Origin: Parcubacteria group bacterium GW2011_GWA1_56_13
GTDB lineage: Bacteria > Patescibacteriota > Minisyncoccia > Phycocordibacterales > Phycocordibacteraceae
Direction: 5' to 3'
DNA: 37,658 nt
Assembly (NCBI GenBank): GCA_001004905.1
Contig: LCRY01000002.1
Location: forward strand, 69,747-107,404
Within the stretch, counting starts at the first letter, position 1. The number at the start of each line of letters is the position of its first letter. The position numbers and the translations under genes are program-made. Positions 704 through 13,853 of the stretch are shown piece after piece. The notes under the pieces are model-generated. The model was given only the letters and a program-made list of their open reading frames with translations, was not told the origin of the DNA and searched no databases.

Positions 704-778
704 ATGGCTGCCTATCGCCCCACCACCCCATTAGAAATAAAACCCATTTCTAATGGGGCAAGTCGGTTGACTATATGA
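704..778 (+). other. 24-aa uORF (MAAYRPTTPLEIKPISNGASRLTI), probable displaced 5' end of gatB
   Basis: TATACT at 689-694, ATG at 704. YRPT mirrors GatB YIPT(IGLE). TGA 776-778 overlaps the gatB ATG at 775 (ATGA). Confidence 0.5.
726..758. repeat. REP-like palindrome CCCCATTAGAAAT-7nt-ATTTCTAATGGGG
   Basis: Perfect 13-bp arms at 726-738 and 746-758. Confidence 0.8.
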
Positions 779-2193
779 AAAAACAGTACATCCCAACCAT
801 AGGATTGGAGGTGCATGCTGAGTTAAAGACGCGGACCAAGATGTTCTGCGACTCCAAAAACGACCCCGACGAGACGCGGCCGAACACGCACGTCTGCCCG
901 GTGTGCATGGCGCATCCGGGCACGCTGCCCGTCATCAACCGCGAAGCGGTCCGCCACATCCTGCGCATCGGCACGGCCGTCGGCGGCACGCTCGCCGATT
1001 TCACCGAGTTCGACCGCAAAAGCTATTTCTATCCCGACATTCCGAAGGGGTACCAGATAAGCCAGTACATTCATCCGCTTGTCGTGGGCGGGAAACTCAC
1101 GGGAGTCGCGCTCACGCGCGTCCACTTGGAGGAAGACACGGCGCGTTCCATCCATTCGGGCGGGAAAAGCCTGGTAGATTTCAACCGCGCCGGCATCCCG
1201 CTTATGGAACTCGTGACCGAACCGGTCATCCCCGACGCGGAGACGGCGGGAAAATTCGCGCGCGAACTCCAGCTCCTCCTGCGCACCCTCGGCGCCTCCG
1301 AAGCGAACCTGGAGAAGGGAGAAATGCGTATCGAGGCGAACATTTCGATATCAAAAAGCGGCGATTTCGGGACGAAAGTGGAGGTGAAAAACCTCAATTC
1401 CTTCCGCTCCGTCGAGCGCGCCATCGCGTTTGAAATAGAGCGCCAAACGGCTCTCCTTTCGGAAGGAAAAAAAGTGGAGCAGGAGACGCGCGGGTGGAAC
1501 GAGGAAAGGCAGGAAACCTTCCACCAGCGCTTCAAGGAGGGAAGCGCCGACTACCGGTATTTCCCGGAGCCGGATCTTCCGAAATTGTTCCTATCGGAGG
1601 TCCCCGGGTTCTCCAAAGAGGCGGTCCGCGCGACACTGCCGGAGCTGCCCTGGGAGCGGCGTACGCGATACGCATCGGCATACGCGCTCAAAGAAAGCGA
1701 CATCGCGTATCTCGGCGCGACGCCGGAACGCGCTACATTTTTTGATATGGTCGCCAAGGCGCTCGACGACGATACTGAATTGGTGACCCGTGCGGCGAAT
1801 TACATTATCTCGGACCTCGCCGGCATATACGCGAGCCGAGGCCGCGAAGATTTCGCATCCCTCGATGCGCTTGCCTTCGCGAAACTCATGCGCCTTGCCG
1901 CCGACCACACGCTTTCTTCTCGCGGTACCAAAGACACCCTGCGCATCATGGTTGAGAAAGGAGGAGACCCTGAAGCGATAGCGAGGGAGCATGGCCTCGT
2001 GCAGATCCACGATGCGGGAGCTTTGGCCGCGGCGGTGGATGCGGTCCTCTCAAGAGAAGGGAAAGCGGTGCAAGAGTATAAAAGCGGCAAACAGGCGGCC
2101 CTGCAGTACTTAATAGGGAAGTCCATGAAAGAGAGCGGCGGGGCAGGAAACCCGGAAAGCATCCGTAAGCTCATAACCGAGAAAGTGGGCTAG
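775..2193 (+). CDS. gatB: Asp/Glu-tRNA amidotransferase subunit B
   Basis: IGLEVHAEL, CPVCMAHPGTLP, FDRKSYFYPDIPKGYQISQ, HLEEDTA, DFNRAGIPLMELVTEP, VEVKNLNSF, DYRYFPEPDLP. Confidence 0.98.
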   Translation: MKKQYIPTIGLEVHAELKTRTKMFCDSKNDPDETRPNTHVCPVCMAHPGTLPVINREAVRHILRIGTAVGGTLADFTEFDRKSYFYPDIPKGYQISQYIHPLVVGGKLTGVALTRVHLEEDTARSIHSGGKSLVDFNRAGIPLMELVTEPVIPDAETAGKFARELQLLLRTLGASEANLEKGEMRIEANISISKSGDFGTKVEVKNLNSFRSVERAIAFEIERQTALLSEGKKVEQETRGWNEERQETFHQRFKEGSADYRYFPEPDLPKLFLSEVPGFSKEAVRATLPELPWERRTRYASAYALKESDIAYLGATPERATFFDMVAKALDDDTELVTRAANYIISDLAGIYASRGREDFASLDALAFAKLMRLAADHTLSSRGTKDTLRIMVEKGGDPEAIAREHGLVQIHDAGALAAAVDAVLSREGKAVQEYKSGKQAALQYLIGKSMKESGGAGNPESIRKLITEKVG

Positions 2194-2242
2194 TTGTACA
2201 CAGCCCTTCCATACCAGCCGAGATACGGCTATACTGTCCGGA

Positions 2243-3010
2243 ATGGAGCAGATTCTCATCGGAGAAAAGAACTACATATCGTCGAAACGAGCTGCCCAGC
2301 TGACCGGGTATGCGAAGGACTATATCGGACAGCTCTGCAGAGAGGGGAGAGTGCCGGCGCGGCTCGTCGGCCGCAGTTGGTATGTACTTGAATCGGCGAT
2401 ACGCGACCACCGTTTTGGGGCATCTGAAAAGGAAAAATCCGTGCGATCAGCGCCGCTGTCTTCGCCGACGTGGGAGTCCCCGCGCTACGAAGCGTCTTCG
2501 GAAGAACTCCTTCCTTCTTTGAACCGGCCCCAAGCTGTCGAACTCTCCACCGAACCTGCGCCCGTCGCGCCGGAAGTATCACAACAGCATTTACAGGATT
2601 CGTGGCGCGCATGGTTCGAACGAGTAGGTAACTCCGGCGGATCGGACGTTTCAGAACCGAGAAACGAGCCGGAAATCGTTTCTACGGAAATTCCGACAGA
2701 GGAGACAAGAGAACCGGAGACAGAAGAAGTGAATATACCCATTCGTACGGTCTACGAACTGCCGCCCGATGACCTTCTACCTCGCCATCACGTGACCGAA
2801 GTACGGAACGACGAAGAATTCGTGCAAGAACAGCAGGAAAGAAGGCCTGCGAGAGGAAGAGGTGCGGTAAGGACCATTCAAATAACGGGGGTGCTTATTG
2901 CGATAGTGCTTGCTGGACTTGCAGTAATTGGGACGGGATATTTTGATACATATATACCCTCGGATAGCCAAGTCGGTATAATTGCCGGAGTTGCTTCGTA
3001 TAATAGATAG
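2243..3010 (+). CDS. Protein with N-terminal HTH (HTH_17/excisionase-like), acidic linker and C-terminal TM helix
   Basis: YISSKRAAQLTGYAKDYIGQLCREGRVPARLVGRSWYV. Hydrophobic ITGVLIAIVLAGLAVIG near the C-terminus. TATACT 7 nt before the ATG. Confidence 0.8.
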   Translation: MEQILIGEKNYISSKRAAQLTGYAKDYIGQLCREGRVPARLVGRSWYVLESAIRDHRFGASEKEKSVRSAPLSSPTWESPRYEASSEELLPSLNRPQAVELSTEPAPVAPEVSQQHLQDSWRAWFERVGNSGGSDVSEPRNEPEIVSTEIPTEETREPETEEVNIPIRTVYELPPDDLLPRHHVTEVRNDEEFVQEQQERRPARGRGAVRTIQITGVLIAIVLAGLAVIGTGYFDTYIPSDSQVGIIAGVASYNR

Positions 3011-3850
3011 CATAATTGCTCAATTTCTTGTCTCGGATAGACACATCACGGTTACATTAACAGAGAAACTGACCAAAAAGTGCTATACGAGAAATATTGG
3101 CCATAAACCACTGCTTGTGTCGAAAAAGCGTCCACTCCGGGCAATAACTGACTATTTTGGGCATTCTGTCAGTGATTTATGTCGCACAATGTTTTCAATA
3201 TTTTACGACGCACGCAAAATCAATAAAAACTCGCGAAAAAATAGACGTTCGTGATAAGTATTAGTTTAGTGTCTGATATATCTAGGAAATGCTAATTATA
3301 ATTTGGATTCAGCAACTGCGTACTGGTCTTGATTTTTAAATTTTTCCGGTTTTGAGCGTGCTGAAAACTCACGAAAATGAGTTTTTTACAGGTTCATGTA
3401 CGGTATATTCTTCACTCAAGGCGACCTGTAAACCTGCTACAGGTCATAAAATGACCTACCAAGGATTAACTCTCCATTTTAAGCCAAAACCCCACTTTGG
3501 CATTTTCCCTTACGTTTGTTGCCGATGATTTTTAAAATTCAGAGTTTGATTTGATATGAATCAGATCTGCAAGAACACTTGTTATGGAATATTTATAAGA
3601 TACAGCAAATAAACCGGATTTTATCTCGATAAGCCGAGATATTTGTATAGAGCAAAAGGCGCTTAACGTGCATAAAGTGTGTACATCAGGTTGGTAAAAA
3701 GAGGGGCAATAGCGCATTGCTCTTGATCCTGGCTCCGTTTTGGAAGCGGTCCTTGTTGATAACAAAGAGCCACTTATCCCCAGTGGTCAAAAATTTCTAC
3801 GTAATATTGCTGAGAAATCAAGTAAACTATTAGTGATTATAGCGATTTCC

Positions 3851-6800
3851 ATGGCTCCTTTTTTCAACGAAAAATCGCAAAAAAATATTCAAATTCCCGA
3901 AGCCGCAAATCTCTCTGGGTACAGCAAGGGATATCTCTCCTACCTGTGCCGAACGGGAAAAATACTTGGGACGTACTCCCACAACGAGTGGTCCGTCGAT
4001 CTTGCATCTCTTGAGGGGTTCATGAGAAGCCAGTCCGAGCGCAAAGAAGCCCGGGCCCGCTCGCTCGCAAGTTCCCGCGCGATCGAGTACCAGAGCCGCC
4101 GCCCGCCGTCTCCCGCCTCTAACGTTCCCGCAGTCGTCCATGCGCCTCCTCCCGCGCGCAGGAGTAAATACGGATTTACGAAACCAGTATTTACTCCAGC
4201 AGAAACGACGGTGGGTTCACCATCTCTCTTTTCTAAATACGCGGCAGGCATGACGGCACTCGCCGTCATCACGCTTTCGGCGCTTGCCGCGCATACTCTC
4301 GTACCGCCGATCGCCGTCCGCGTCGCTTCTCTCACGAAGGACGCCGCTTTCGATGTCAGAATCGTCTTTGGCGACGTGTCCGCGCGCATTGCTGAAAAAG
4401 TCGAAGAAGCGCGAAAGGTCGAACATGCGCACACGCCGCTCGCTCTCGCGGATGTTCGAGCGCTTGCACAACCGGATCTTTCGGCGCTACGTATGAACGT
4501 TGATAGTGCGCGACGCGTCAGTGTTTCGATGGAAGCGATCGTGGCAGGCACGCTTCCAGCTTCGACAAGAATGAGTATGGACGGTGAGTTACGAACGCTC
4601 GCGCGCGATGCGTATCATCTTCTGACTTCGCCATCGGCTACTTTTGACGCGCTCATGGGTGCGCATGCCATCCTCGGTGAACGCGCGTACACCGCGACGG
4701 TTGCTTCATTCTCCACGTATCGTTCGCTCATTGACACATTAGGCGAGCGGTCGCTGGCACTCGCCGTCTCCGCCCGCGACCTCCTCTCCCGCGCCCCCCG
4801 CTTCGTCTCCGACCTGAACCTCGCCCTGGGCTCCGCAATCGTCAACGCCTCCCACGCGGCGATACGCGCCGACGCGTCGCTTGCATACGGCCTCTCAAAG
4901 GCGGCGCCGAAGAGCGCCGCCGCTCTCGCCGCGCTTTTCGGCACCGCGGGCGACACGCTCGCCCGCACCACGGCGCGCATTCCCGCCCTTGCCACCTCCT
5001 TCTTCCTCGATACCGCCGCTCTTCCATCCGAGCTTGCCCCCACCATCGCAGAAGCGGTCTTCGACGCAGAATACCGCGCCGCCGAGCGCTTCCTGGCCCT
5101 CTCTGACCGCACCGCGCGCCTCTCCCTCGCCTCGCTCTTTGCCGCCGGACACTTCGCACAGGATTCGCTCGCCCTCCTGCGCGCCGCTCCTCCCGCCCTC
5201 GACGACGCGTACCTCGGCACCATCGGCAAAGGCGCTGTCGCCATCAACCAGGCGACCGCACCGCTCCTCGCTGCCATCGCCCCGTCTCTCTCCGCGGGCG
5301 AAGAGCTCGCCCTCGCCACATACCAAACTATCCAGAACCTCTTCGATGCCACCAACCGCATGCTCGCCCTCCTGCTTGGCCCGCCGCCCGTCGTCGTCTC
5401 GAACCCTCCTCCCACACGCTCGGTCCTCACCACGCTCTCCGCCAGCACCACGCCCGCCACATACACCACCATCGTCCAGGGCATCTCCCTCGCTTCGCTC
5501 GACCAGTCGCTCGCCACGCTTCGGGCAAACATCATCGCCGAGGTTTCCGGCATGATCAATCCGGTCGCCACTCAGGTGGCATACGACCACGTCTTCAAAT
5601 ACACCGAGACCGCCCCCTTCAACGGCGGCTCGGTCGAGAACGACGTCTCCGCACCCTTCTTCACCGCAAGCGATGCGGACGGGACGAACGCCTTCGCCGG
5701 CACCTTCTCCGCCGGCACGACGACGGTGAAGAATCTTGTCGTGACCAATACGAGCACAAGCACGTTCGCGGGCCCTCTTTCCGTTGCCGGCGCCCTCACC
5801 GTGACCGGAACCACCACCGCTGCCGGATTCATATCGACAAACCTCGGAGTTGCCCTCGCCCCCGCCTATACCTTCCAGGGCGATACCGGCACCGGCTTCT
5901 GGTCTCCCACCGCCTCCACCCTCGCGCTCTCGACCGGCGGCGTCGAACGCCTGCGCATCGACGCCGACGGCAACGTGGGCATCGGCACCTCTTCTCCCGA
6001 CGCCCTCCTCTCGCTCCAGCAAGTCACCAACGGCACAACCTTCCTAAGCGCATACCGCGTGACCGACATCGCCCCTTCAGGCGACTTCATCTCCTTCAAA
6101 CAGAACGACGGCACCACGCTCTTCCGCGTGGACAACTCGGGCAACCTCCTTGCCGGCGGCATCATCAACTCCGGCTCCCAGACCATCACGTCCACGAGCC
6201 AGCCGCAGTTCCGCATACAGTACGACCCTTCAAACGAAATCACCTTTGCCGCAGGAGTGACCGGCACTACCACTGTCGGCTTAAACGGCACCGCCCCCGG
6301 CCTTGCCTTCACCCCCCAGTCGAACCTCGTGAACCAGTTCAACTTCACCAATGCGTCGAGCGACTCCGTGCTCTCCATCGATACGGTGAACAAGCGGGTG
6401 GGGGTGGGGACGACGAGTCCGTGGGCCCAACTCTCGGTGAACCCGAACGGCATCACGGGCCCCGCATTCGTCGTCGGTTCCTCAACCGCGACAAACTTCA
6501 TCGTGACGAATGCGGGAAAGGTCGGTATTGGTACCGCTGCGCCGTCGAATCAATTGAGTGTCGCAGGTTCCATTGATCTGGGTACGATGGGTAATTTTCT
6601 TACCGGCTATGGCCGCTCTATTTCCTGGTCAACTGCTGGTACAAGCCATAATGACAGCGCATCTCTCATGGCACTTTCAGGCAATATACTAAAAATCAGG
6701 GGCTCCGGAGCTATTACGTTAAATGAAGATAATTCAGGCAACGTCGGCATCGGGACGACGAGTCCGTGGGCCCAACTCTCGGTGAACCCGAACGGCATCA

Positions 6801-7852
6801 CCGGCCCGTCGTTCGTCATTGGCTCTTCGACCGCCACCAACTTTATCGTGACGAACAAGGGAAATGTGGGCATCGGCACGACGAATACATATACGAATGG
6901 CACCGGTAATTTAACCGTAAACAATTTTTTGCAAGTCGGAAATTCAATTCAGGGTTTAGGTGGCGGCAGCCAAGGCGACCTGTTTCTTGGCGGCGGTACC
7001 GGCAACTCACAGGTTTATATCAATGCCGGCGCCATAGGTTCTATCGTAAGCGGCGGCATTAGTTTGGGAGAAACAAATAATTATTGGAGCAATGCGTTTA
7101 TTGCCAGCACCATTACATTTGGCAGCGCGGGAGCGGGAGACACCGGCCTCTCCCGCATCTCGGCAGGCAAAATCGGCGTTGGCACCGGCACGGCAGGAAG
7201 CTCGGCAGGGACTCTGATAGCAAACACGGTCGGCATCGGGACGACGAGTCCGGGAGCGAAGCTGCATATCGAGGGTGGTACATCGGGCAGCTCGTTCGCC
7301 TCTATGTATCTAATCAACAATACGGCATATTCTGCTGGTTCTGCCGTAAGGATTTCGCTCGCCCCAGATTCAGCATATGGCTCGAATCCCGCTACCTACG
7401 CTCCGTACATTGAAAGCTACGCACAAAATGACGCAAGCAAGGCTGGTCTTGCATTTGCGACATATAACGGGGCCGGTTTTCCAGAAGAGAGACTAAGGAT
7501 TACAGCTGCTGGCAACGTCGGCATCGGGACGACGAGTCCGAGCACTCGTCTGCATATCGTTGACTCAAATCCTGTCGGTGCCGCGAATACGGTTGCCAAT
7601 CAGGACGTACTTACGGTGGACAGTAATACCTACGCGTATATAAACCTTCGTTCCCCTTCTTCCGGCACCGACATAGCGGGAGGTATTTTGTTCAGTGACG
7701 ACGCGAGGGCGCGGGGAGGAGTCATCTACAACCATCGGGAGTCTAACGCGGTATCTGACCGCTTGGACTTTTTGACCTCTGCCGGCACGAGAATGTCAAT
7801 CAACTCCTCCGGCAACGTCGGCATCGGCAGGGGCGCTCTTGGACGTGTATAA
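3851..7852 (+). CDS. Giant surface/fibre protein, N-terminal part (HTH, TM, Ala/Leu helical stalk, GNVGIGTTSP modules); frameshifted at ~7829
   Basis: ATG 3851 preferred over TTG 3740. HTH IPEAANLSGYSKGYLSYLCRTGKI...WSVD, TM YAAGMTALAVITLSALAA, 8 GNVGIG-type repeats. The ORF ends just after a broken repeat. Confidence 0.8.
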   Translation: MAPFFNEKSQKNIQIPEAANLSGYSKGYLSYLCRTGKILGTYSHNEWSVDLASLEGFMRSQSERKEARARSLASSRAIEYQSRRPPSPASNVPAVVHAPPPARRSKYGFTKPVFTPAETTVGSPSLFSKYAAGMTALAVITLSALAAHTLVPPIAVRVASLTKDAAFDVRIVFGDVSARIAEKVEEARKVEHAHTPLALADVRALAQPDLSALRMNVDSARRVSVSMEAIVAGTLPASTRMSMDGELRTLARDAYHLLTSPSATFDALMGAHAILGERAYTATVASFSTYRSLIDTLGERSLALAVSARDLLSRAPRFVSDLNLALGSAIVNASHAAIRADASLAYGLSKAAPKSAAALAALFGTAGDTLARTTARIPALATSFFLDTAALPSELAPTIAEAVFDAEYRAAERFLALSDRTARLSLASLFAAGHFAQDSLALLRAAPPALDDAYLGTIGKGAVAINQATAPLLAAIAPSLSAGEELALATYQTIQNLFDATNRMLALLLGPPPVVVSNPPPTRSVLTTLSASTTPATYTTIVQGISLASLDQSLATLRANIIAEVSGMINPVATQVAYDHVFKYTETAPFNGGSVENDVSAPFFTASDADGTNAFAGTFSAGTTTVKNLVVTNTSTSTFAGPLSVAGALTVTGTTTAAGFISTNLGVALAPAYTFQGDTGTGFWSPTASTLALSTGGVERLRIDADGNVGIGTSSPDALLSLQQVTNGTTFLSAYRVTDIAPSGDFISFKQNDGTTLFRVDNSGNLLAGGIINSGSQTITSTSQPQFRIQYDPSNEITFAAGVTGTTTVGLNGTAPGLAFTPQSNLVNQFNFTNASSDSVLSIDTVNKRVGVGTTSPWAQLSVNPNGITGPAFVVGSSTATNFIVTNAGKVGIGTAAPSNQLSVAGSIDLGTMGNFLTGYGRSISWSTAGTSHNDSASLMALSGNILKIRGSGAITLNEDNSGNVGIGTTSPWAQLSVNPNGITGPSFVIGSSTATNFIVTNKGNVGIGTTNTYTNGTGNLTVNNFLQVGNSIQGLGGGSQGDLFLGGGTGNSQVYINAGAIGSIVSGGISLGETNNYWSNAFIASTITFGSAGAGDTGLSRISAGKIGVGTGTAGSSAGTLIANTVGIGTTSPGAKLHIEGGTSGSSFASMYLINNTAYSAGSAVRISLAPDSAYGSNPATYAPYIESYAQNDASKAGLAFATYNGAGFPEERLRITAAGNVGIGTTSPSTRLHIVDSNPVGAANTVANQDVLTVDSNTYAYINLRSPSSGTDIAGGILFSDDARARGGVIYNHRESNAVSDRLDFLTSAGTRMSINSSGNVGIGRGALGRV

Positions 7853-10800
7853 AACTGGATCTAATGACCCACTGGTCCAATTTGGGAGTTGGGGACTCAC
7901 AGATAACCATGCTGTAACACTGATGAACGGAGCTGGAGAATTAGATCTCTTTGTATCTGGGGCGAGCGACACCTTCATGCTCGGGACAACGCAGGGGGAT
8001 GTCGGAATGTTCTTTACTTCAGGTGACGATTTCCACCTAGGCAATAAGAACGCCTCGCCGTACGTGACTGTCAAAGACGGCGGCAACGTCGGCATCGGGA
8101 TATTAAGTCCCACGGCGCTATTAGATGTGAGTGCTGCAGCAGCGAGCACCGATATAGTGAGAATAAGAGCCGGTGGCGCTGGGATTTCATTAGGCACCAA
8201 CGCTTCCGGGTTCGGCCTCATAGGAAATACAGCATTTGGAAGTGTCATTACAATAGATACAAGCGGCAACGTCGGCATCGGCGATACCACGCCGAGCTAC
8301 AAACTGGAGGTTAACGGAGATTTTAATGCCACGGCTGTCTACTCAAACGGCGTCCTCCTTTCGCCGGGCACGGGTTCCAACTGGTCGGTAAGCGGCTCCG
8401 ACATCTATCGCTCGGCAGGAAACGTCGGCATCGGGACGACGAGTCCGCAAAGCTTACTGCATTTAAGCAGTTCAAGCATAGATGGTGTTCATTTTAGACT
8501 TGAAAGCGCAGATACCGGCGGAAACGTATGGGAAATCATTTCTACCGGTTCAAATAACGACGGCGGCGCTGGTAATTTGAGGTTCTATAACGGCATAACC
8601 GGAGTGGGGCCGGTATTTACAAGCACCGGCAACGTCGGCATCGGGACGACGAGTCCGCAAAGCCCGCTCCATATCGAGAACGGCAGTCCGCTCATCGTGA
8701 CTTTTGACAATGACGCCGCTATGTCTGCGTCACGGCCCGCATGGGCAGCAGGCGCGACGGGTGCGCTATATGAAATAGGTTCTATCACAAGCTATTCGGG
8801 GACTATAGTGAACGACGTTACGGCGCGCTTGGTAATCGATGCTTCCGGCCTCGTCGGCATCGGGACGTCGACGCCGGGGGCGAAGTTGGAAATTTATGAT
8901 GACACTTTTGGGGGCGCGACACCGCTCGCGGTCTACGGTAACTCGGACAACATTACCATTACGGATATTTCGACAAACAGACAAAACCAAGGTTCGTTAC
9001 TCTATATTTCTACGCCCAATGAGTTGAGCAACAGTAATAGCATTGGTATGTTCGGCGTCGGAGATGCCAGCGACACGGGGCAGAAAGGCAACTTGTTCCA
9101 CATTACGCAAACCGGCAACGTCGGCATCGGGACGACGACGCCAGGGCGAGCATTACATGTTCTTTCATCAGGAGATCAGGCAATATTTGAAGGCACGGGA
9201 AACGCAGGTGTGGATATTCGAGCACAAGGTGCTGAGGCCGGTAATTTAGCTTATCTTGACCTCGCGACTAACAGCACCGGTGTTGCCACCCCGGATTACA
9301 ACGTCCGCATCGCTGGCTACGAAGACAACAGCCTTAGAATTTATTCCAGCGACACAAATGAACGCATCCGAATGACAAGCGACGGCAACGTCGGCATCGG
9401 GACGACGAGTCCATGGTCTATAGCAACTAACTATGGAACTCTGGCTATCGGCGGGACTGACGGTGGGGGTCTTCGGTTTGGGAAAAATAACGGCGGTACA
9501 GCCCGATTCTATGCTGATGACGGAGGCATGTTCCTTCAGGTAGCAAGTACAACTCTTCCCATGGTATTTGCGACGGGAGGTAACGAACGCATACGTATTG
9601 ATAAAGACGGCAACGTCGGCATCGGGACGACAAGTCCTGCGGCACAAGGTTCCGGAGCATCGCCGCGCATTTTAGAGGTTTATGGCGGAAGTGATGTCGG
9701 GATGCTTAATCTTAGTAGTAGTGCCACCAGCGACGGTTCTTCTGCTGGTGCAGTGGCTTTTATCACGAGTGCCAGTCCATCTGCAGACAAGCGTCTTGGT
9801 CTTGTCGTCGGCGCAAACGACGGCAGTTCAGCGGCATCGACGAATGGACGGCTTACTTTCTGGACAAATAATGCAGGAACAATTGCCGAACGGATGAGAA
9901 TAGATAAAAGCGGCAACGTCGGCATCGGGACGACGGACACGAGCACCTATAAGGTGAACGTGAACGGTTCGCTCAACGCCACGGAGATCCGCGTGAACGG
10001 AGTAGTGCTAAATCCCGGCACCGGCTCCAACTGGACGGTGAGTGGCTCTGACATCTACCGCCTCGCCGGCAACGTCGGCATCGGCACGACGAGCCCGGCT
10101 AGCCTCCTTCATGTAAACGGTCCTGGAACGTTTACGCCTTTTGGCGGCTCTGATGCGCGCCAAGTCGTCATCACGACGCCCGGTGGGACCGATGGAGGTA
10201 TCGTTCTAAGTGCCAACTCGTCAGATGCGACGACGAGAGTGGATATTTCAAGAGTAAGCGGTGATTTGACATTCGCCCTCGGTTCAGGAACGGCCGAAAG
10301 AATGCGCATCACCTCTTCCGGCAACGTCGGCATCGGGACGACGACACCGTCGAATAAATTGACCATATATACCGGCAATATCGCGAACGCCAATGAGGGG
10401 ATATCGCTGACACGGGGCGCAGTCGGCGCGCCGCAGGACAATGTGTTCGGGATGCGCCTCAAGTCGGATGCTTCCGGGAATTACCGCGGAGCGTTCACGA
10501 TAACGAGCAATATCGGCAATCCCGAAACCGAGGCCTTGACGATCGGCACTGGCGGCAACGTCGGTATCGGGACGACGAGTCCGGAGACATTGCTCGATGT
10601 AAATAAAACCGTAGCAGGTGGAGAAGTGCAGCTGAGGGTAAAAAATCCTTCCAATTCTGCATCTGCAGCGGCCTCTGTAATAGTCGAAGTAGGCGGTTCG
10701 TCTGCGACGGGAGACGCCCGCTATGTAACTTCGGATGGGACTACCTACTGGGCATTTGGGCAAGATATAAGTGCATCAAATGCCTTTAAGATTTCTCAGA

Positions 10801-11303
10801 ATGCCGCGCTTGGCACAAACGACTTTTTGACAATTCTAACGAGCGGCAACGTCGGTATCGGGACGACGAGCCCGCAGGCTTTGTTGCATTTGAACAGTAC
10901 GGGGAACACGGTTTTAACAATAGAATCCGTTGGAGATAATAATCCTGCCATAAGATTCCGGTCAAACGACATTCAAAAGGCAGTTTTAGGTTATGACAAA
11001 GACATTGATGCTTTCAAAATATCTCACAGCGAATCGGGAACATCGTTCACAGACAATCAGTTGATTATAAAAAGCGGCAACGTCGGCATCGGCACGACGA
11101 CGCCGACCTCGTACGTCGGAGCAACGCGCGTACTGGACGTTTATAATGCGGTCGATACTTCTATTTCTATCGGCAAGGCGGGAAAGAATTACGAATTTTT
11201 CTTAGGCAGTGACAATGCTTTGACATTCCGCGATAGCACCGCGGGCGTAGTCCGAATGCTGATTTCCTCTTCCGGCCTCGTCGGCATCGGGACGACGAGT
11301 CCG
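5969..11303 (+). repeat. Dispersed in-frame ~30-bp repeat, consensus GGCAACGTCGGCATCGGGACGACGAGTCCG, ~23 copies
   Basis: Copies start near 5969, 6395, 6515, 6737, 6860, 7223, 7511, 7811, 8082, 8265, 8418, 8628, 8847, 9114, 9384, 9609, 9912, 10068, 10320, 10554, 10845, 11076, 11274. Confidence 0.9.
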
Positions 11304-13013
11304 GCCACCTTGCTTGAGGTAGGCGGCTCGACCAACAACATCACCTTCGACGGATACAAGAACTGCACGGGATACACCAGCAACAGCAACGGCCTCCTCG
11401 CCTGCACGGCTTCAGACCAGCGCCTAAAGCAGGACATCAGCCCGCTCGCGGGAGCGAGCGGGCTTGCGGCCATCGGCGCACTGAATCCCGTCTCCTTCTA
11501 TTGGAAACCCGCGGCCGAGCGCGGAACGAACGAGCAGTTCGGTCTCATCGCCCAGGATGTCCGGAACGTATTCCCGAATCTTGTTACCACCACGAACCCA
11601 ACTCCGCTTGCGCCCGACGGCACGCTCACCATCGACTACCAGGGCCTCATCGCCCCGATGGTCCTCGCGATACAGCAGTTGGATGCGCGGACAAAATTCA
11701 TCGTGAGCGCCGCATCGTCCACCGCGCTTACGGTCGGCAACGCGGGCGACATCGGCGTCGGAACGTCGATCGCCGGCATCTCCGCCAAGTTCTCCGTCTC
11801 GGGAAATGTCTTCGCGACTTCATATGAGACCGCCAATATTCCCGCAACGTCCTTTACGCTCGGCAGCACGAATTCGACAAGCTCACCGCAAGCGACCTTC
11901 ACGGCGCAGATACCGAGCGCGGTTCTGACCGCGCTCGGTTCTGTGGACCTGTACAAACTCGCGACGTATAACCTTTCGGGCATTTCCGCGCTCGCGCTCG
12001 CGCTTGAAGAACAAGAAGCACGCATCACCTCTCTTGAGTCACGCGTCGCGGCGCTCGAGAACGGGACCATCACTTCGACCAGCGGCACGACATCTCTTTC
12101 CACCACCTCGCTCACTGACGCGCTCAATACTCTCGGCGTGTTCATTAAGAGCGGCTTCGCCCAGTTCGGCACGCTCGTCGCCGACCGATTCGTCGCCGCC
12201 GCCGATTCCGCCGGCACCGCCTCTGCCGGCACGGTTACCATCCTCGCGGGCAATACCGTCGCGCAGGTCAACAACGCGTACGTGACGCCGGCAACCAAAG
12301 TATTCATAACGTTCACCGCTCCGGTTACGGGCTCCTGGTACATCAACGACAAAAAAGCAGGTTCGTTCAAAGTGGTGCTCGCAAACGCGCAAACGACGGA
12401 CGCCTCATTCGATTACTTCCTCGTGCAGACCGAGGGGCAGATGGCGACCACCACGACGACTATCTCCGGACCGAGCGTGGAATTGAGCGGCGGCACTACC
12501 GCCACTTCGCAAACTACGACCACCTCGACTACGCTCACTGCAGGCACGACGGACACGTCAACCACTACCGCAACCTCGACTGTAGGAACGACCGGTCCTA
12601 CGGCAACGACAACTCCCTCCTCGAGCGACACCATCGCACCAGTGGTCACGCTCAACGGCGACGCCGCCATGCAGATAACGGTGGGCGACACCTTCACCGA
12701 CCCCGGCGCCACCGCCTCCGACCCTCCGACTGATAGCTCGGAGCAGGCGACCGACCTCACGGCACATATAACTGTATCGGGTGCGGTTAATACCGCCACC
12801 GCAGGGCTCTACACCCTGACCTACTCCGCCACCGACGCGGCGGGGAATACCGGCTCCGCCTCCCGCGTCGTGACGGTGGCCGCCCCCGCAACTTCGACAA
12901 GCTCACCGCAGGCAAGCTCGCCATCTGACGGCACTACCACGACCACCATCGACACAACCACCTCTTCGACCGACACGACCTCCGCCCCTCCAGTCGACAC
13001 CACCTCTCCATAA
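7839..13013 (+). CDS. Giant surface/fibre protein, C-terminal part (15 GNVGIGTT modules, peptidase S74 intramolecular chaperone, coiled coil, DUF5011-like Ig, Thr-rich tail)
   Basis: SDQRLKQDI...LNPVSFYWK...GLIAQDV...IDYQGLIAPMVLAIQQL (S74). DTIAPVVTLNGD...FTDPGATASD...GLYTLTYSATDAAGN (Ig-like). It continues the upstream ORF in another frame, so TTG 7839 is probably not a true start. Confidence 0.85.
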   Translation: MDVYKTGSNDPLVQFGSWGLTDNHAVTLMNGAGELDLFVSGASDTFMLGTTQGDVGMFFTSGDDFHLGNKNASPYVTVKDGGNVGIGILSPTALLDVSAAAASTDIVRIRAGGAGISLGTNASGFGLIGNTAFGSVITIDTSGNVGIGDTTPSYKLEVNGDFNATAVYSNGVLLSPGTGSNWSVSGSDIYRSAGNVGIGTTSPQSLLHLSSSSIDGVHFRLESADTGGNVWEIISTGSNNDGGAGNLRFYNGITGVGPVFTSTGNVGIGTTSPQSPLHIENGSPLIVTFDNDAAMSASRPAWAAGATGALYEIGSITSYSGTIVNDVTARLVIDASGLVGIGTSTPGAKLEIYDDTFGGATPLAVYGNSDNITITDISTNRQNQGSLLYISTPNELSNSNSIGMFGVGDASDTGQKGNLFHITQTGNVGIGTTTPGRALHVLSSGDQAIFEGTGNAGVDIRAQGAEAGNLAYLDLATNSTGVATPDYNVRIAGYEDNSLRIYSSDTNERIRMTSDGNVGIGTTSPWSIATNYGTLAIGGTDGGGLRFGKNNGGTARFYADDGGMFLQVASTTLPMVFATGGNERIRIDKDGNVGIGTTSPAAQGSGASPRILEVYGGSDVGMLNLSSSATSDGSSAGAVAFITSASPSADKRLGLVVGANDGSSAASTNGRLTFWTNNAGTIAERMRIDKSGNVGIGTTDTSTYKVNVNGSLNATEIRVNGVVLNPGTGSNWTVSGSDIYRLAGNVGIGTTSPASLLHVNGPGTFTPFGGSDARQVVITTPGGTDGGIVLSANSSDATTRVDISRVSGDLTFALGSGTAERMRITSSGNVGIGTTTPSNKLTIYTGNIANANEGISLTRGAVGAPQDNVFGMRLKSDASGNYRGAFTITSNIGNPETEALTIGTGGNVGIGTTSPETLLDVNKTVAGGEVQLRVKNPSNSASAAASVIVEVGGSSATGDARYVTSDGTTYWAFGQDISASNAFKISQNAALGTNDFLTILTSGNVGIGTTSPQALLHLNSTGNTVLTIESVGDNNPAIRFRSNDIQKAVLGYDKDIDAFKISHSESGTSFTDNQLIIKSGNVGIGTTTPTSYVGATRVLDVYNAVDTSISIGKAGKNYEFFLGSDNALTFRDSTAGVVRMLISSSGLVGIGTTSPATLLEVGGSTNNITFDGYKNCTGYTSNSNGLLACTASDQRLKQDISPLAGASGLAAIGALNPVSFYWKPAAERGTNEQFGLIAQDVRNVFPNLVTTTNPTPLAPDGTLTIDYQGLIAPMVLAIQQLDARTKFIVSAASSTALTVGNAGDIGVGTSIAGISAKFSVSGNVFATSYETANIPATSFTLGSTNSTSSPQATFTAQIPSAVLTALGSVDLYKLATYNLSGISALALALEEQEARITSLESRVAALENGTITSTSGTTSLSTTSLTDALNTLGVFIKSGFAQFGTLVADRFVAAADSAGTASAGTVTILAGNTVAQVNNAYVTPATKVFITFTAPVTGSWYINDKKAGSFKVVLANAQTTDASFDYFLVQTEGQMATTTTTISGPSVELSGGTTATSQTTTTSTTLTAGTTDTSTTTATSTVGTTGPTATTTPSSSDTIAPVVTLNGDAAMQITVGDTFTDPGATASDPPTDSSEQATDLTAHITVSGAVNTATAGLYTLTYSATDAAGNTGSASRVVTVAAPATSTSSPQASSPSDGTTTTTIDTTTSSTDTTSAPPVDTTSP

Positions 13014-13017
13014 TTCA

Positions 13018-13044
13018 CCACTTGGCGGTCTCACCGCCAAGTGG
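13018..13044. repeat. REP-like palindrome copy 1 (CCACTTGGCGGT-CTC-ACCGCCAAGTGG)
   Basis: Perfect 12-bp arms, 3-nt loop, upstream of the transposase. Confidence 0.9.
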
Positions 13045-13250
13045 ATTGTCAACTGAGTGGTATAAAATGCAGTTATGGGCACGAGGAAAAAAGCTTTTAC
13101 AAACGGAGAATTCTTTCATATTTACAACAGAGGCGTTGATAAGCGCACTATCTTCAGCGACGGTCATGACCAACACAGATTTTTCACAAGCATGATCGAA
13201 TTCAATACCATAGATCCGATAGGAAGCTTGTATGAGAACTCCTTTCACCA

Positions 13251-13273
13251 ACTTGGCGGTGAGACCGCCAAGT
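13251..13273. repeat. REP-like palindrome copy 2, inside the transposase CDS (ACTTGGCGGT-GAG-ACCGCCAAGT)
   Basis: 10-bp arms; translated as QLGGETAKS. Confidence 0.9.
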
Positions 13274-13524
13274 CAGAAGAACGATTGGTCAATATCATTG
13301 CTTTTTGTCTGAATCCAAATCATTTTCATTTTATTCTGGAACAATTAACGGATAGGGGTATCAGTGAATTTATGAGGAGATTGAGCGGTGGATATACCTG
13401 GTATTTCAATAATAAATATGAAAGAAGCGGTTCTTTATTTCAGGGCGTATTTAAAGATGTACATATCGATTCCAATGAGTACTTGCTCCATCTCAGCGCC
13501 TATGTGAACTTAAATGATCGGGCC

Positions 13525-13557
13525 CACCAACTTGGCGGTCTCACCGCCAAGTTGGTG
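13525..13557. repeat. REP-like palindrome copy 3, inside the transposase CDS (CACCAACTTGGCGGT-CTC-ACCGCCAAGTTGGTG)
   Basis: 15-bp arms; translated as HQLGGLTAKLV. Confidence 0.9.
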
Positions 13558-13735
13558 AGCAGTAAGTCGAGTTGGGAAGAATATACAAATGGAGGAAACG
13601 AGGGAATTTGTGAAAAAGAAATTGTCCTAGGTCAATTCAAGAACACGGGCGAGTATAAGAAATTTGCACTCGATTCTCTCGATGCGATTATACGGAGAAA
13701 AGCAGAGCCAAAAGAGCTTGATATATATTTGGAAT

Positions 13736-13766
13736 AGTCACTTGGCGGTGAGACCGCCAAGTGACT
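13736..13766. repeat. REP-like palindrome copy 4 (AGTCACTTGGCGGT-GAG-ACCGCCAAGTGACT)
   Basis: 14-bp arms, overlapping the transposase stop codon. Confidence 0.9.
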
Positions 13767-13853
13767 GTATTGGGCGGTTCGATCAAAGCAGTAGACGGTT
13801 TCCATAGGGTTCCATAGGGTACAATGGAGAGGTCGGGACTCATTCGCCATTCC

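Follow-up and report, generated by a model that had tools for sequence, protein, structure and literature searches.

The locus described here raises the question of why a surface-fibre gene should repeatedly spell one short protein motif in nearly the same codons, and whether the segments between these repeats are exchanged at them. The window, i.e., the whole stretch of DNA analyzed, comprises 37,658 nt (contig LCRY01000002.1, positions 69,747-107,404, GCA_001004905.1) from Parcubacteria group bacterium GW2011_GWA1_56_13. The host is an ultra-small groundwater bacterium of the candidate-phyla-radiation (CPR). In the assembly, the fibre gene is divided into two ORFs (Table 1). Contigs from the source-sample runs X1 and X3 (one each) contain 11 additional bases 3' of position 7827, at the depth of the fibre gene itself, and the library protein P0001 is continuous across the ORF break. 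The two ORFs are therefore one gene, with a product of about 3,100 aa, and the split at 7827 most likely arose from loss of 11 bases in the assembly; the modules lie inside one gene, as the first-pass annotation had assumed, once this is corrected. Breaks in the Logan contigs of the source-sample runs fall at joints.

Homology identifies the product as an N-terminally membrane-anchored, trimeric beta-helix surface fibre of the phage-tail-fibre or Bdellovibrio MAT kind. The first ORF matches PHROG tail fiber 9942 at E 1.6e-26, as well as PHROG 18345, and its conserved N-terminal block is common to a paralog. For the beta-helix stalk, a match to PHROG 9942 has an E of 4e-49. The Peptidase_S74 match scored 57.7 bits (cut-off 22), and the S-D-x-x-x-K motif is readable as SDQRLK in the translation of the second ORF. 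In phmmer searches, the fibre matched Bd2133 (8OND; E 1e-6), and its joints aligned to GNLGLGTAAP, GLVGINTAAP, and GNVGIGATAP, located at sub-domain starts. The joints are spaced as in Bd2133, with one residue more than in the MAT consensus as printed. By this alignment and the PHROG 9942 match, GNVGIGTTSP-x3-L is identified as the recurrent capping-loop motif that bounds successive beta-helix sub-domains of the stalk. The homotrimeric state is presumed from family membership, and the fibre most likely functions in binding of a host cell.

Table 1. Features of the fibre gene and its Y1 neighbour (window coordinates).
Feature	Position	Strand	Remarks
Fibre gene, first ORF	3740..7852	+	HTH-like stretch, hydrophobic anchor, conserved N-terminal block, modules 1-7
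Joint 1	5969..5998	+	GNVGIGTSSP; non-canonical 3' half; same spelling type in paralog
Joint 2	6392..6421	+	KRVGVGTTSP; chimeric (5' half non-canonical, 3' half canonical)
Joint 3	6515..6544	+	GKVGIGTAAP, codons non-canonical
Joint 4	6737..6766	+	canonical 30-mer, exact
Joint 5	6860..6889	+	GNVGIGTTNT
Joint 6	7223..7252	+	NTVGIGTTSP
Joint 7	7511..7540	+	canonical 30-mer, exact
Broken joint	7811..7840	+	11 bases absent after 7827 in assembly; the two ORFs fuse when restored
Fibre gene, second ORF	7839..13013	+	modules 8-22, S74 domain, Ig-like domain, Ser/Thr-rich tail
Joint 9	8082..8111	+	GNVGIGILSP
Joint 10	8265..8294	+	GNVGIGDTTP
Joint 11	8418..8447	+	1 mismatch to canonical 30-mer
Joint 12	8628..8657	+	canonical 30-mer, exact
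Joint 13	8847..8876	+	GLVGIGTSTP
Joint 14	9114..9143	+	3 mismatches
Joint 15	9384..9413	+	1 mismatch
Joint 16	9609..9638	+	2 mismatches
Joint 17	9912..9941	+	GNVGIGTTDT
Joint 18	10068..10097	+	2 mismatches
Joint 19	10320..10349	+	2 mismatches
Joint 20	10554..10583	+	1 mismatch
Joint 21	10845..10874	+	2 mismatches
Joint 22	11076..11105	+	3 mismatches
Joint 23	11274..11303	+	GLVGIGTTSP; final joint ahead of S74 region
Peptidase_S74 intramolecular chaperone/autoprotease domain	11412..11585	+	PF13884, ORF2 aa 1192-1249, E 1.4e-15
Bacterial surface Ig-like domain	12648..12878	+	E 3.5e-21
Y1 perfect hairpin 1 of 4	13019..13043		fold z -9.35
IS200-like Y1 (HUH) gene	13075..13737	+	fibre-gene neighbour
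Y1 perfect hairpins 2-4	13246-13273, 13525-13552, 13735-13762		two inside the Y1 coding sequence

The amino-acid pattern ..VG[IV]G returned 23 joints from 5969 through 11303, all of them direct repeats, so that the array of GNVGIGTTSP-type joints described in the first-pass annotation is real, as are its three exact copies. The canonical 30-mer, GGC AAC GTC GGC ATC GGG ACG ACG AGT CCG, occurs 13 times at ≤3 mismatches and was absent from 100 shuffles. The canonical codon was used in 18/21 (GGC), 17/18 (AAC), 20/23 (GTC), 19/23 (GGC), and 21/22 (ATC) cases at codons 0-4, and in 16/23 (GGG), 18/20 (ACG), 16/18 (ACG), 11/14 (AGT), and 15/20 (CCG) at codons 5-9. The relative use of the same ten codons in the genome, computed from 419 long ORFs, is.48,.54,.39,.48,.54,.18,.43,.43,.07, and.52, and the locked GGG and AGT are thus rare codons. 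Pairs of joints with the same residue shared the codon at frequencies of 0.56-0.90 (0.22-0.50 expected) over codons 0-9, an excess that was absent at the conserved flanking Ile -4 (0.33 vs. 0.39 expected) and Leu +13 (0.18 vs. 0.28 expected). The lock has sharp edges: it takes in the third base of codon -1 and stops short of the last position of the Pro codon, which is free, giving a conserved 29-mer, C-GGC-AAC-GTC-GGC-ATC-GGG-ACG-ACG-AGT-CC. In the relatives G054 and G021 the protein motif is spelled with mixed codons, and since many fibre genes use free codons for it, the protein can be made without the word.

Each of the 22 modules corresponds to a complete beta-helix sub-domain (31-131 aa). 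Together they have a GC3 of 0.548, where 0.678 is expected from their residues and the codon use of the genome. The corresponding values are 0.697 for the N-terminal part, 0.756 for the C-terminal part, and 0.850 for the joints. The gene is a compositional mosaic, with per-module GC3 ranging from 0.38 to 0.87 against 0.65-0.70 expected (chi2 141.5, df 21, p 7e-20). This heterogeneity peaks with boundaries placed at the joints, the true partition being reached by 0/1548 circular shifts, and drops once boundaries are moved 5-10 codons off them. The highest values (0.81-0.87) belong to multi-copy modules; GC-biased conversion could alternatively cause this, in which case the AT-rich modules would not be foreign. 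The first-pass claims that the modules are AT-richer than their flanks and that protein-level selection is insufficient to fix the synonymous sites agree with these figures. Its description of the modules as mostly unrelated holds for BLASTP, where only two pairs were found at E<=1e-4, but not for the weak periodic similarity (22-27%) that runs through them.

Module-bounded homology was found in the paralog and in relatives. Window positions 5381-6420 match the paralog at 79%, and this homology terminates at the 3' edge of joint 2; in the two genes alike, the end-point is 1 base away from the edge. The paralog has two additional modules ahead of a common 41-aa module, and every middle module differs between the two genes. 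In relative G007, a 274-bp module is present twice with 100% identity, 5 kb apart and with joints at both ends. Blocks of 504-620 bp (80-91% between genes) lie at different offsets and also end at joint edges. Altogether, 335 of 427 HSP ends fall ≤15 nt from a joint edge (random placement, mean 77.5, max 101), a clustering partly built in, as HSPs traverse the conserved joint and most of the count comes from the 41-aa module family; when only HSPs ≥170 nt are taken, the number is 25/61. The motifs thus separate variable segments, and end-points coincide with them in the paralog, the relatives, and the GC3 change-points. In-frame gain, loss, copying, and replacement of modules at the joint, largely as suggested in the first-pass annotation, find support in the GC3 partition, the paralog boundary, and identical modules copied joint to joint at non-adjacent places in relatives. 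No near-identical copies of the unique modules of the window were found elsewhere, so no recent exchange is seen for this gene. With joints masked, no between-species match ≥85% was obtained except for one close pair, and for modules 14-16 the best non-self protein relative among 1.84 billion representatives was 39-48% identical, with metagenome contigs giving at most 43%.

The word itself is not restricted to this genome. At least 120 genome stretches, from CPR, DPANN archaea, and predatory bacteria, contain the exact 29-mer, and at least 120 viral stretches a 24-mer of the joint; the family is very widespread and patchy. The word is present also in genes with a GC3 of 0.16-0.3. In 17 genome loci with GC3 <0.35, the canonical codon made up 59-76% at codons 0-8 (94 non-ascertained joints), against 10-24% predicted from the codon use of the same gene. 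In 30 viral loci (141 joints), the canonical codons were likewise kept against the codon use of the gene itself. There, a specific base is kept, not merely G or C: the T of AGT stands at 0.90 (range 0.89-0.96), and the alternative G/C base is rare (0.02-0.07). Genome and viral loci alike had been selected by a single exact match; one joint of this kind was dropped from each locus, and within-gene homogenisation could inflate the rest. As other bacteria, archaea, and viruses have the same 29-letter word in their fibre genes, it most likely marks seams of module exchange.

We consider it rather probable that ordinary homologous recombination uses the joint as an in-frame seam, in the way described for T-even tail-fibre motifs. 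The word would provide a stretch of perfect homology at which modules are joined in frame, within the gene, between paralogs, or with fibre DNA of foreign origin, cellular or viral, and modules would thereby be duplicated, lost, or replaced; a dedicated enzyme would be unnecessary. The spelling would persist as only joints matching the common word keep exchanging. We infer both recombination at the joint as the cause and the force preserving the spelling from these patterns. Retention of an exact word across domains by such a second-order benefit is theoretically weak, and a homology of 27-30 bp is close to the minimum that RecA-type recombination requires.

Several other explanations were weighed. 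Ordinary codon bias with protein-level selection fits the observation that eight of the ten joint codons are the commonest of the genome for their residue; however, fixation lies well above usage frequencies even for GGG and AGT, conserved neighbours are unlocked, and the same codons recur in AT-rich, low-GC3 loci, and this explanation was rejected as having next to no probability. Concerted evolution only, with joints homogenised by short-tract, possibly GC-biased conversion as a by-product of protein conservation and without module movement, is unlikely but deserves more weight. It agrees with the within-gene homogeneity of joints, with some genomes having their own spelling (ACC ACC in G030, GGC AAT GTT GGG ATT in G039), with the high GC3 of joints and multi-copy modules, and with a second common joint type that departs from the canonical one by G-to-C changes only. 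Within-genome conversion, however, cannot hold one word across phyla and viruses, and neither the retention of a specific base nor the module-bounded rearrangements follow from it. Somewhat more doubtful is a sequence-specific nucleic-acid function of the 29-mer apart from recombination, e.g., a translation pause or an mRNA/DNA binding site. Exact conservation regardless of host codon usage, edges that disregard codon borders, and the two rare codons would suit such a function, whereas the word showed no significant fold (z -0.1 to -1.5), matched no Rfam family, is dispensable for the protein, and has no evident factor that bacteria, archaea, and viruses would all share. Another explanation is that fibre genes, whole or in large part, were recently transferred horizontally and that the joints are identical because they are young. 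This would be in line with the patchy family and the atypical module GC3; yet the modules beside identical joints are host-adapted (GC3 0.16-0.3) or beyond blastn detection, and synonymous sites of joints and modules ought to age together, which makes this very improbable.

Least credible apart from codon bias is a dedicated site-specific enzyme, the Y1 (HUH) protein or another recombinase, that cuts and joins at the joints in the manner of integrons or shufflons. In its favour, fibre genes in G000 (two cases), G007, G014, G030, G010, and G006 have an orthologous Y1 gene (≥54% identity) on their downstream side. The gene in the window belongs to the IS200/IS605-like type, with a Y1_Tnp match (PF01797, 28.8 bits, cut-off 23), HFH and YVNLN readable in the translation as H-x-H and Tyr helix, and cognate hairpins at the gene ends; its NCBIfam REP_Tyr_transpos score of 27.6 is below the cut-off of 80, and it is therefore not an equivalog of RayT. 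However, a Y1 gene was found in only 1 of 77 diverse canonical-joint loci, and no recombinase recurred among 110 neighbouring ORFs. Y1 genes have their own perfect hairpins with compensatory changes, whereas the joints, all direct repeats, gave no hairpin fold (z -0.09 to -1.53, with the Y1 hairpin as positive control). The Y1 gene most likely stands outside the joint mechanism. The first-pass annotation had correctly noted that no dedicated recombinase was in view; its proposals of a repeat-spacer system or capture site, and of the HUH transposase as a candidate partner, were not supported, and a search of the genome for silent cassettes found none, the 30-mer being confined to its two fibre genes.

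If the joint is a recombination seam as we favour, fibre modules would be exchanged in frame within the gene and among paralogs, cells, and viruses, and the system can be compared with several known ones. Integron cassettes and shufflons are repeat-bounded, reorderable units that depend on a recombinase of their own and on sites that are structured or inverted; neither these nor IS200/IS605-driven systems correspond to the joints, for which no recurrent linked recombinase and no structured site were found. In Neisseria pilE/pilS and Borrelia vlsE, conserved DNA brackets variable coding segments that undergo segmental exchange by general recombination, from silent donor cassettes in one genome and within the lifetime of a strain; the present genome differs in that no such cassettes were found. 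As to diversity-generating retroelements, which pair a reverse transcriptase with a template/variable repeat pair, no reverse transcriptase was seen among the ORFs looked at near the fibre gene.

Closer in protein architecture are the MAT fibres of Bdellovibrio bacteriovorus, which include S74 and non-S74 types (Caulton et al. 2024, PMC10769870, PDB 8OND). They share with the window protein a cellular, phage-tail-fibre-like trimeric beta-helix, an S74 chaperone with SDxxxK, and a recurrent beta-helix loop motif (printed consensus V-G-G/N-pi-X-X-P-X-X-X-L), and their tips have been swapped over evolution (PMC10769870). All 21 MATs start with a signal peptide followed by a conserved ~130-aa beta-rich N-terminal domain (PMC10769870), whereas at the N terminus of the window protein an HTH-like stretch is followed by a hydrophobic anchor, and about 470 residues extend beyond the S74 domain. 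Conservation of the motif at the DNA level is not treated in the parts of PMC10769870 drawn on here. The mechanism that we favour is of a kind previously described for T-even phages, where recombination occurs at motifs of the distal tail-fibre protein gp37 and at glycine-rich motifs of gp38 (Tetart et al. 1996/1998 in Trojet et al. 2011, PMC3157838). In these phages, short conserved glycine-rich motifs split hypervariable host-recognition segments, exchanges fall in or near the motifs, and a 'networked' pool of exchangeable parts has been proposed (PMC3157838). The joint exchanges proposed for the fibre gene, which is from an uncultivated organism, are read from sequence comparison. The present case differs in that a cellular gene of a CPR bacterium has 23-24 seams in roughly 9 kb, in that the units are whole beta-helix sub-domains, and in that one exact 29-nt word recurs in different bacterial phyla, in DPANN archaea, and in viruses, irrespective of codon usage.

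The 30-mer encoding the GNVGIGTTSP-type joint was found in 13 copies on the plus strand at up to three mismatches, with no copies in 100 dinucleotide-preserving shuffles. At the protein level, the pattern ..VG[IV]G gave 23 joints, from 5969 to 11274-11303, with a spacing of 123-651 nt. Several codons are nearly fixed across these joints (e.g., AAC 17/18, ATC 21/22, GGG 16/23, and AGT 11/14), and the repeated joint with near-identical codons described in the first-pass annotation was thus recovered. With the 419 long ORFs of the 704-kb genome as codon-usage reference (the two fibre ORFs excluded), eight of the ten joint codons rank first for their residue, yet with a relative use of just 0.39-0.54 genome-wide, and GGG (0.18) and AGT (0.07) are rare. 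Pairs of the same residue had the identical codon at frequencies of 0.56-0.90 versus 0.22-0.50 expected, far above what usage predicts, and only at codons 0-9. The excess was absent at a conserved Ile four codons upstream of the joint (0.33 vs 0.39 expected) and at a conserved Leu at +13 (0.18 vs 0.28 expected). Conservation extends to the third base of the codon before the joint; the DNA word thus ignores codon borders. Since the excess stops at the joint and leaves these conserved neighbours unlocked, the proposal that synonymous sites are fixed beyond selection on the protein is supported.

As assembled, the fibre gene consists of two ORFs (3740-7852 and 7839-13013) overlapping just past the joint at 7811. 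In Logan contigs from two runs of the source sample, at a depth equal to that of the gene, 11 additional bases follow 7827; they restore the joint at 7811-7840 and fuse both frames. In addition, one 2,734-aa library protein matches residues 714-1363 of ORF1 (100%) and 1-1724 of ORF2 (99.25%) as a single chain. The split is therefore most likely an assembly deletion of 11 bases inside the repeat, and the array belongs to one gene, as the annotation had assumed. Source-sample contigs end at joints, so the joint word tangles assemblies and explains assembly breaks in such fibre genes; apparent module skips in these contigs had sides of 20-43 nt and trace to repeats or to DNA of other organisms. 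Within ORF2, the library protein has 13 more residues than the assembled sequence. In the Ser/Thr-rich tail (12957-12980), the source-sample contigs differ slightly in repeat length, with 15 different letters between positions 12980 and 12957. The flanks at 3010-4000 (upstream spacer with the start of the fibre gene) and 13013-13800 (the IS200-like Y1/HUH gene) are AT-rich, with a GC of 0.37-0.41 versus 0.57 for the genome. The gatB gene adjoins the fibre gene in the window (region 775-3010) and at three other, Parcubacteria-type loci (L045, L073, and L068).

The modules are AT-richer, as had been noted: their silent-site GC3 was 0.548 versus 0.678 expected from their residues, with 0.697 in the N-terminal part, 0.756 in the C-terminal part and 0.850 in the joints. 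Single modules ranged from 0.38 to 0.87 (expected 0.65-0.70; chi2 141.5, df 21, p 7e-20), and GC3 jumps between adjacent modules (e.g., 0.81, 0.38, 0.87, 0.52). With the joints removed, heterogeneity peaked when boundaries were placed at the true joints, a peak reached by 0 of 1548 circular shifts, and it faded within 5-10 codons of boundary shift. BLASTP among the 22 modules gave two related pairs, and at this level the description of the modules as mostly unrelated holds. Weak periodic similarity persists between them, however, which makes them remote members of a single repeat fold rather than strictly unrelated sequences.

Rearrangements were observed to be bounded by joints. The only fibre paralog of the genome (2,418 aa) has 13 joints of the same DNA type, and within the genome the 30-mer is confined to these two genes; of the targets of the suggested genome search, silent cassettes are therefore absent, and the paralog is the one other gene with the 30-mer. 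The two genes have the N-terminal block and the first module in common, and their 79% DNA match stops one base from the joint edge in both. The paralog has two additional modules ahead of a shared 41-aa module, which is present twice in the window, and all other middle modules differ. The joint at 6392 is chimeric: its 3' half is canonical, its 5' half is not. Among relatives, two copies of a 274-bp module with 100% identity, each running from joint to joint, lie 5 kb from one another in the genome G007, and blocks of 504-620 bp with 80-91% identity were found between different genes at different offsets, ending at joint edges. Within arrays, 335 of 427 HSP ends lay at most 15 nt from a joint edge versus a random mean of 77.5 (maximum 101), a clustering to which one module family contributes most and which partly follows from the construction of HSPs; among those of at least 170 nt, the count was 25 of 61 ends. 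With joints masked, between-species module matches of at least 85% identity, indicative of recent transfer, were absent except in the close pair G005/G014 and in paralogs. Modules 14-16 had relatives of at most 43% identity in a metagenome scan (one 60% stretch over 43 aa), and among 1.84 billion proteins they matched the gene itself and otherwise sequences of at most 48%; near-identical copies of the window's unique modules were found in none of the cross-species, protein and metagenome searches.

Loci L019 (G005) and L022 (G014), from two species, are ~87% identical around the fibre gene, but their module arrays, upstream of the last joint region, differ completely. A single open frame of ~18 kb (~6,000 aa) with some 50 joints was identified at G007:C1:56424-74396 (L014/L015), and the second fibre gene of this genome is spread over three contigs, each ending inside joints.

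Pfam searches of ORF2 identified a Peptidase_S74 chaperone domain and a surface Ig-like domain, and the PHROGs matches were to tail-fibre families. A PDB sequence search gave Bd2133 of Bdellovibrio (8OND; E 1e-6), and the window joints align to its motifs GNLGLGTAAP, GLVGINTAAP, and GNVGIGATAP. The paper on mosaic adhesive trimer (MAT) fibres describes trimeric beta-helices interrupted by a recurrent capping-loop motif, and exchanged tips, and its residue numbers place the first two of the aligned motifs at the start and end of the first beta-helix sub-domain; its Supplementary Fig. 18, a capping-loop alignment, may bear on the joint motif (PMC10769870). From this alignment and motif placement, the joint is a structural boundary loop and each module one beta-helix unit. 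At the N terminus are an HTH-like stretch and a hydrophobic segment; a similar HTH_17-like N-terminal stretch followed by a hydrophobic segment was seen in the small ORF at 2243-3010 and in both fibre proteins. By analogy with its relatives, the fibre, which belongs to a candidate-phyla-radiation (CPR) bacterium, probably binds the host. A literature search limited to main texts returned no description of GNVGIGT or the 17-mer core, and among the matches listed for Patescibacteria episymbionts, tail fiber was not mentioned. Little is known of how ultra-small episymbionts and predators recognise their hosts, and a giant fibre assembled out of exchangeable modules would be a leading candidate for the host-range determinant.

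The word occurs at up to three mismatches in 15 of 60 relatives, three other families among them. The motif is encoded in 35 of the 60, in some with free codons (G054 and G021), so the protein does not need the canonical spelling. An unbiased draw of 400 genomes of the phylum gave 90 encoding GNVGIGTT, and the 150 matches listed included 12 exact canonical words in nine genomes of seven families. The exact 29-mer was identified in at least 120 stretches of a species-representative genome collection, labelled as many CPR classes, Woese- and Pacearchaeota, Bdellovibrionales and others. Such labels on third-party assemblies need care and are partly unreliable: G007 (L016/L017 = L049/L061) belongs by genome placement to the window's genus and is labelled 'uncultured Candidatus Saccharibacteria'. 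Ribosomal protein L31e is present in four archaeal-labelled genomes. The 24-mer was found in at least 120 viral contig stretches; with 22 of 60 ORFs scanned, the fibre-gene loci included a major head protein gene in the viral L210 and a virion structural protein gene in L157, which comes from a giant-virus MAG. The word could serve as a simple probe for such fibre genes in metagenomes.

The Y1/HUH gene directly downstream belongs to a multi-copy family with five copies in the genome, and orthologs are located after fibre genes within the window's genus. Of 77 diverse loci, just one has a gene of this type; perfect hairpins of its own accompany every Y1 gene, whereas the joint does not fold. 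These observations point away from the HUH enzyme, put forward as a candidate in the annotation, as the shuffler, and it was rejected in this role. No recombinase recurs among 110 neighbouring ORFs, in line with the initial statement that no dedicated one is in view.

Hairpins of the Y1/HUH gene (13075-13737, plus strand)
Feature	Position	Location
Hairpin 1	13019-13043	bracketing the gene
Hairpin 2	13246-13273	inside the gene
Hairpin 3	13525-13552	inside the gene
Hairpin 4	13735-13762	bracketing the gene

The bracketing hairpins have a perfect 10-11-bp stem, ACTTGGCGGT-NNN-ACCGCCAAGT; loops alternate between CTC and GAG, and the inner hairpins encode HQLGGxTAK. Four or five hairpins with the same spacing, and with different but compensating stems, were seen at the paralog and in G014. 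The hairpin sequence is particular to each of the five Y1 genes of the genome, and solo copies are located elsewhere, at C2:290124, C2:331948, C2:129277, and C2:376681. At the same downstream spot, the Y1 genes of L019 and L022 differ (37% identity) and point in opposite directions, with ~32-bp palindromes on their flanks.

We favour, with some reserve, the reading that the joint is an in-frame seam for general homologous recombination. The earlier idea of a recombination site through which modules are exchanged in frame is supported by the module-bounded homology and the GC3 change-points at joints, but a capture site or a dedicated repeat-spacer system is not supported, as no recombinase recurs. 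Gene conversion, with the spelling of the joint as a mere by-product, is an improbable alternative. Independence of the spelling from host codon usage was seen at 17 genome loci with a fibre-gene GC3 below 0.35 outside joints, from which one ascertained joint per locus was dropped: the remaining 94 joints had the canonical codon in 59-76% of cases at codons 0-8 versus 10-24% predicted from their own gene, while the Pro codon was almost free and flanking GC3 was near 0.2-0.3. Viral joints likewise keep the canonical codons against host usage (53 of 120 loci, those with at least three joints). At each site one particular base is kept, with the other G/C base at 0.02-0.07 and the T of AGT at 0.90-0.96, which speaks against conversion with a GC bias being the only cause. 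Another nucleic-acid function of the word is slightly less probable still, given a joint that does not fold and matches no Rfam family, and the remaining rivals have small odds.

One exact DNA word is thus found in cells of two domains and in viruses, against local codon usage, and this sharing can be measured as a footprint either of gene flow or of selection acting at silent positions. Beyond the recombination seam, a more speculative and rather doubtful proposal is that the 29-nt word acts as an 'adapter standard' across domains, by which fibre genes of CPR bacteria, DPANN archaea, Bdellovibrio-like bacteria and viruses would form one global pool of host-recognition modules, the exact spelling being held by a frequency-dependent advantage in that only genes with the commonest word would draw on the pool. 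If true, episymbiotic and predatory cells and viruses would exchange host-recognition modules. The principle of the favoured reading, recombination at an in-frame seam, is known from T-even tail-fibre and adhesin genes (PMC3157838). Those genes are phage-borne, whereas here a giant fibre gene is cellular and one word spans domains and viruses, which would extend motif-guided shuffling of fibre genes beyond phages to cells.
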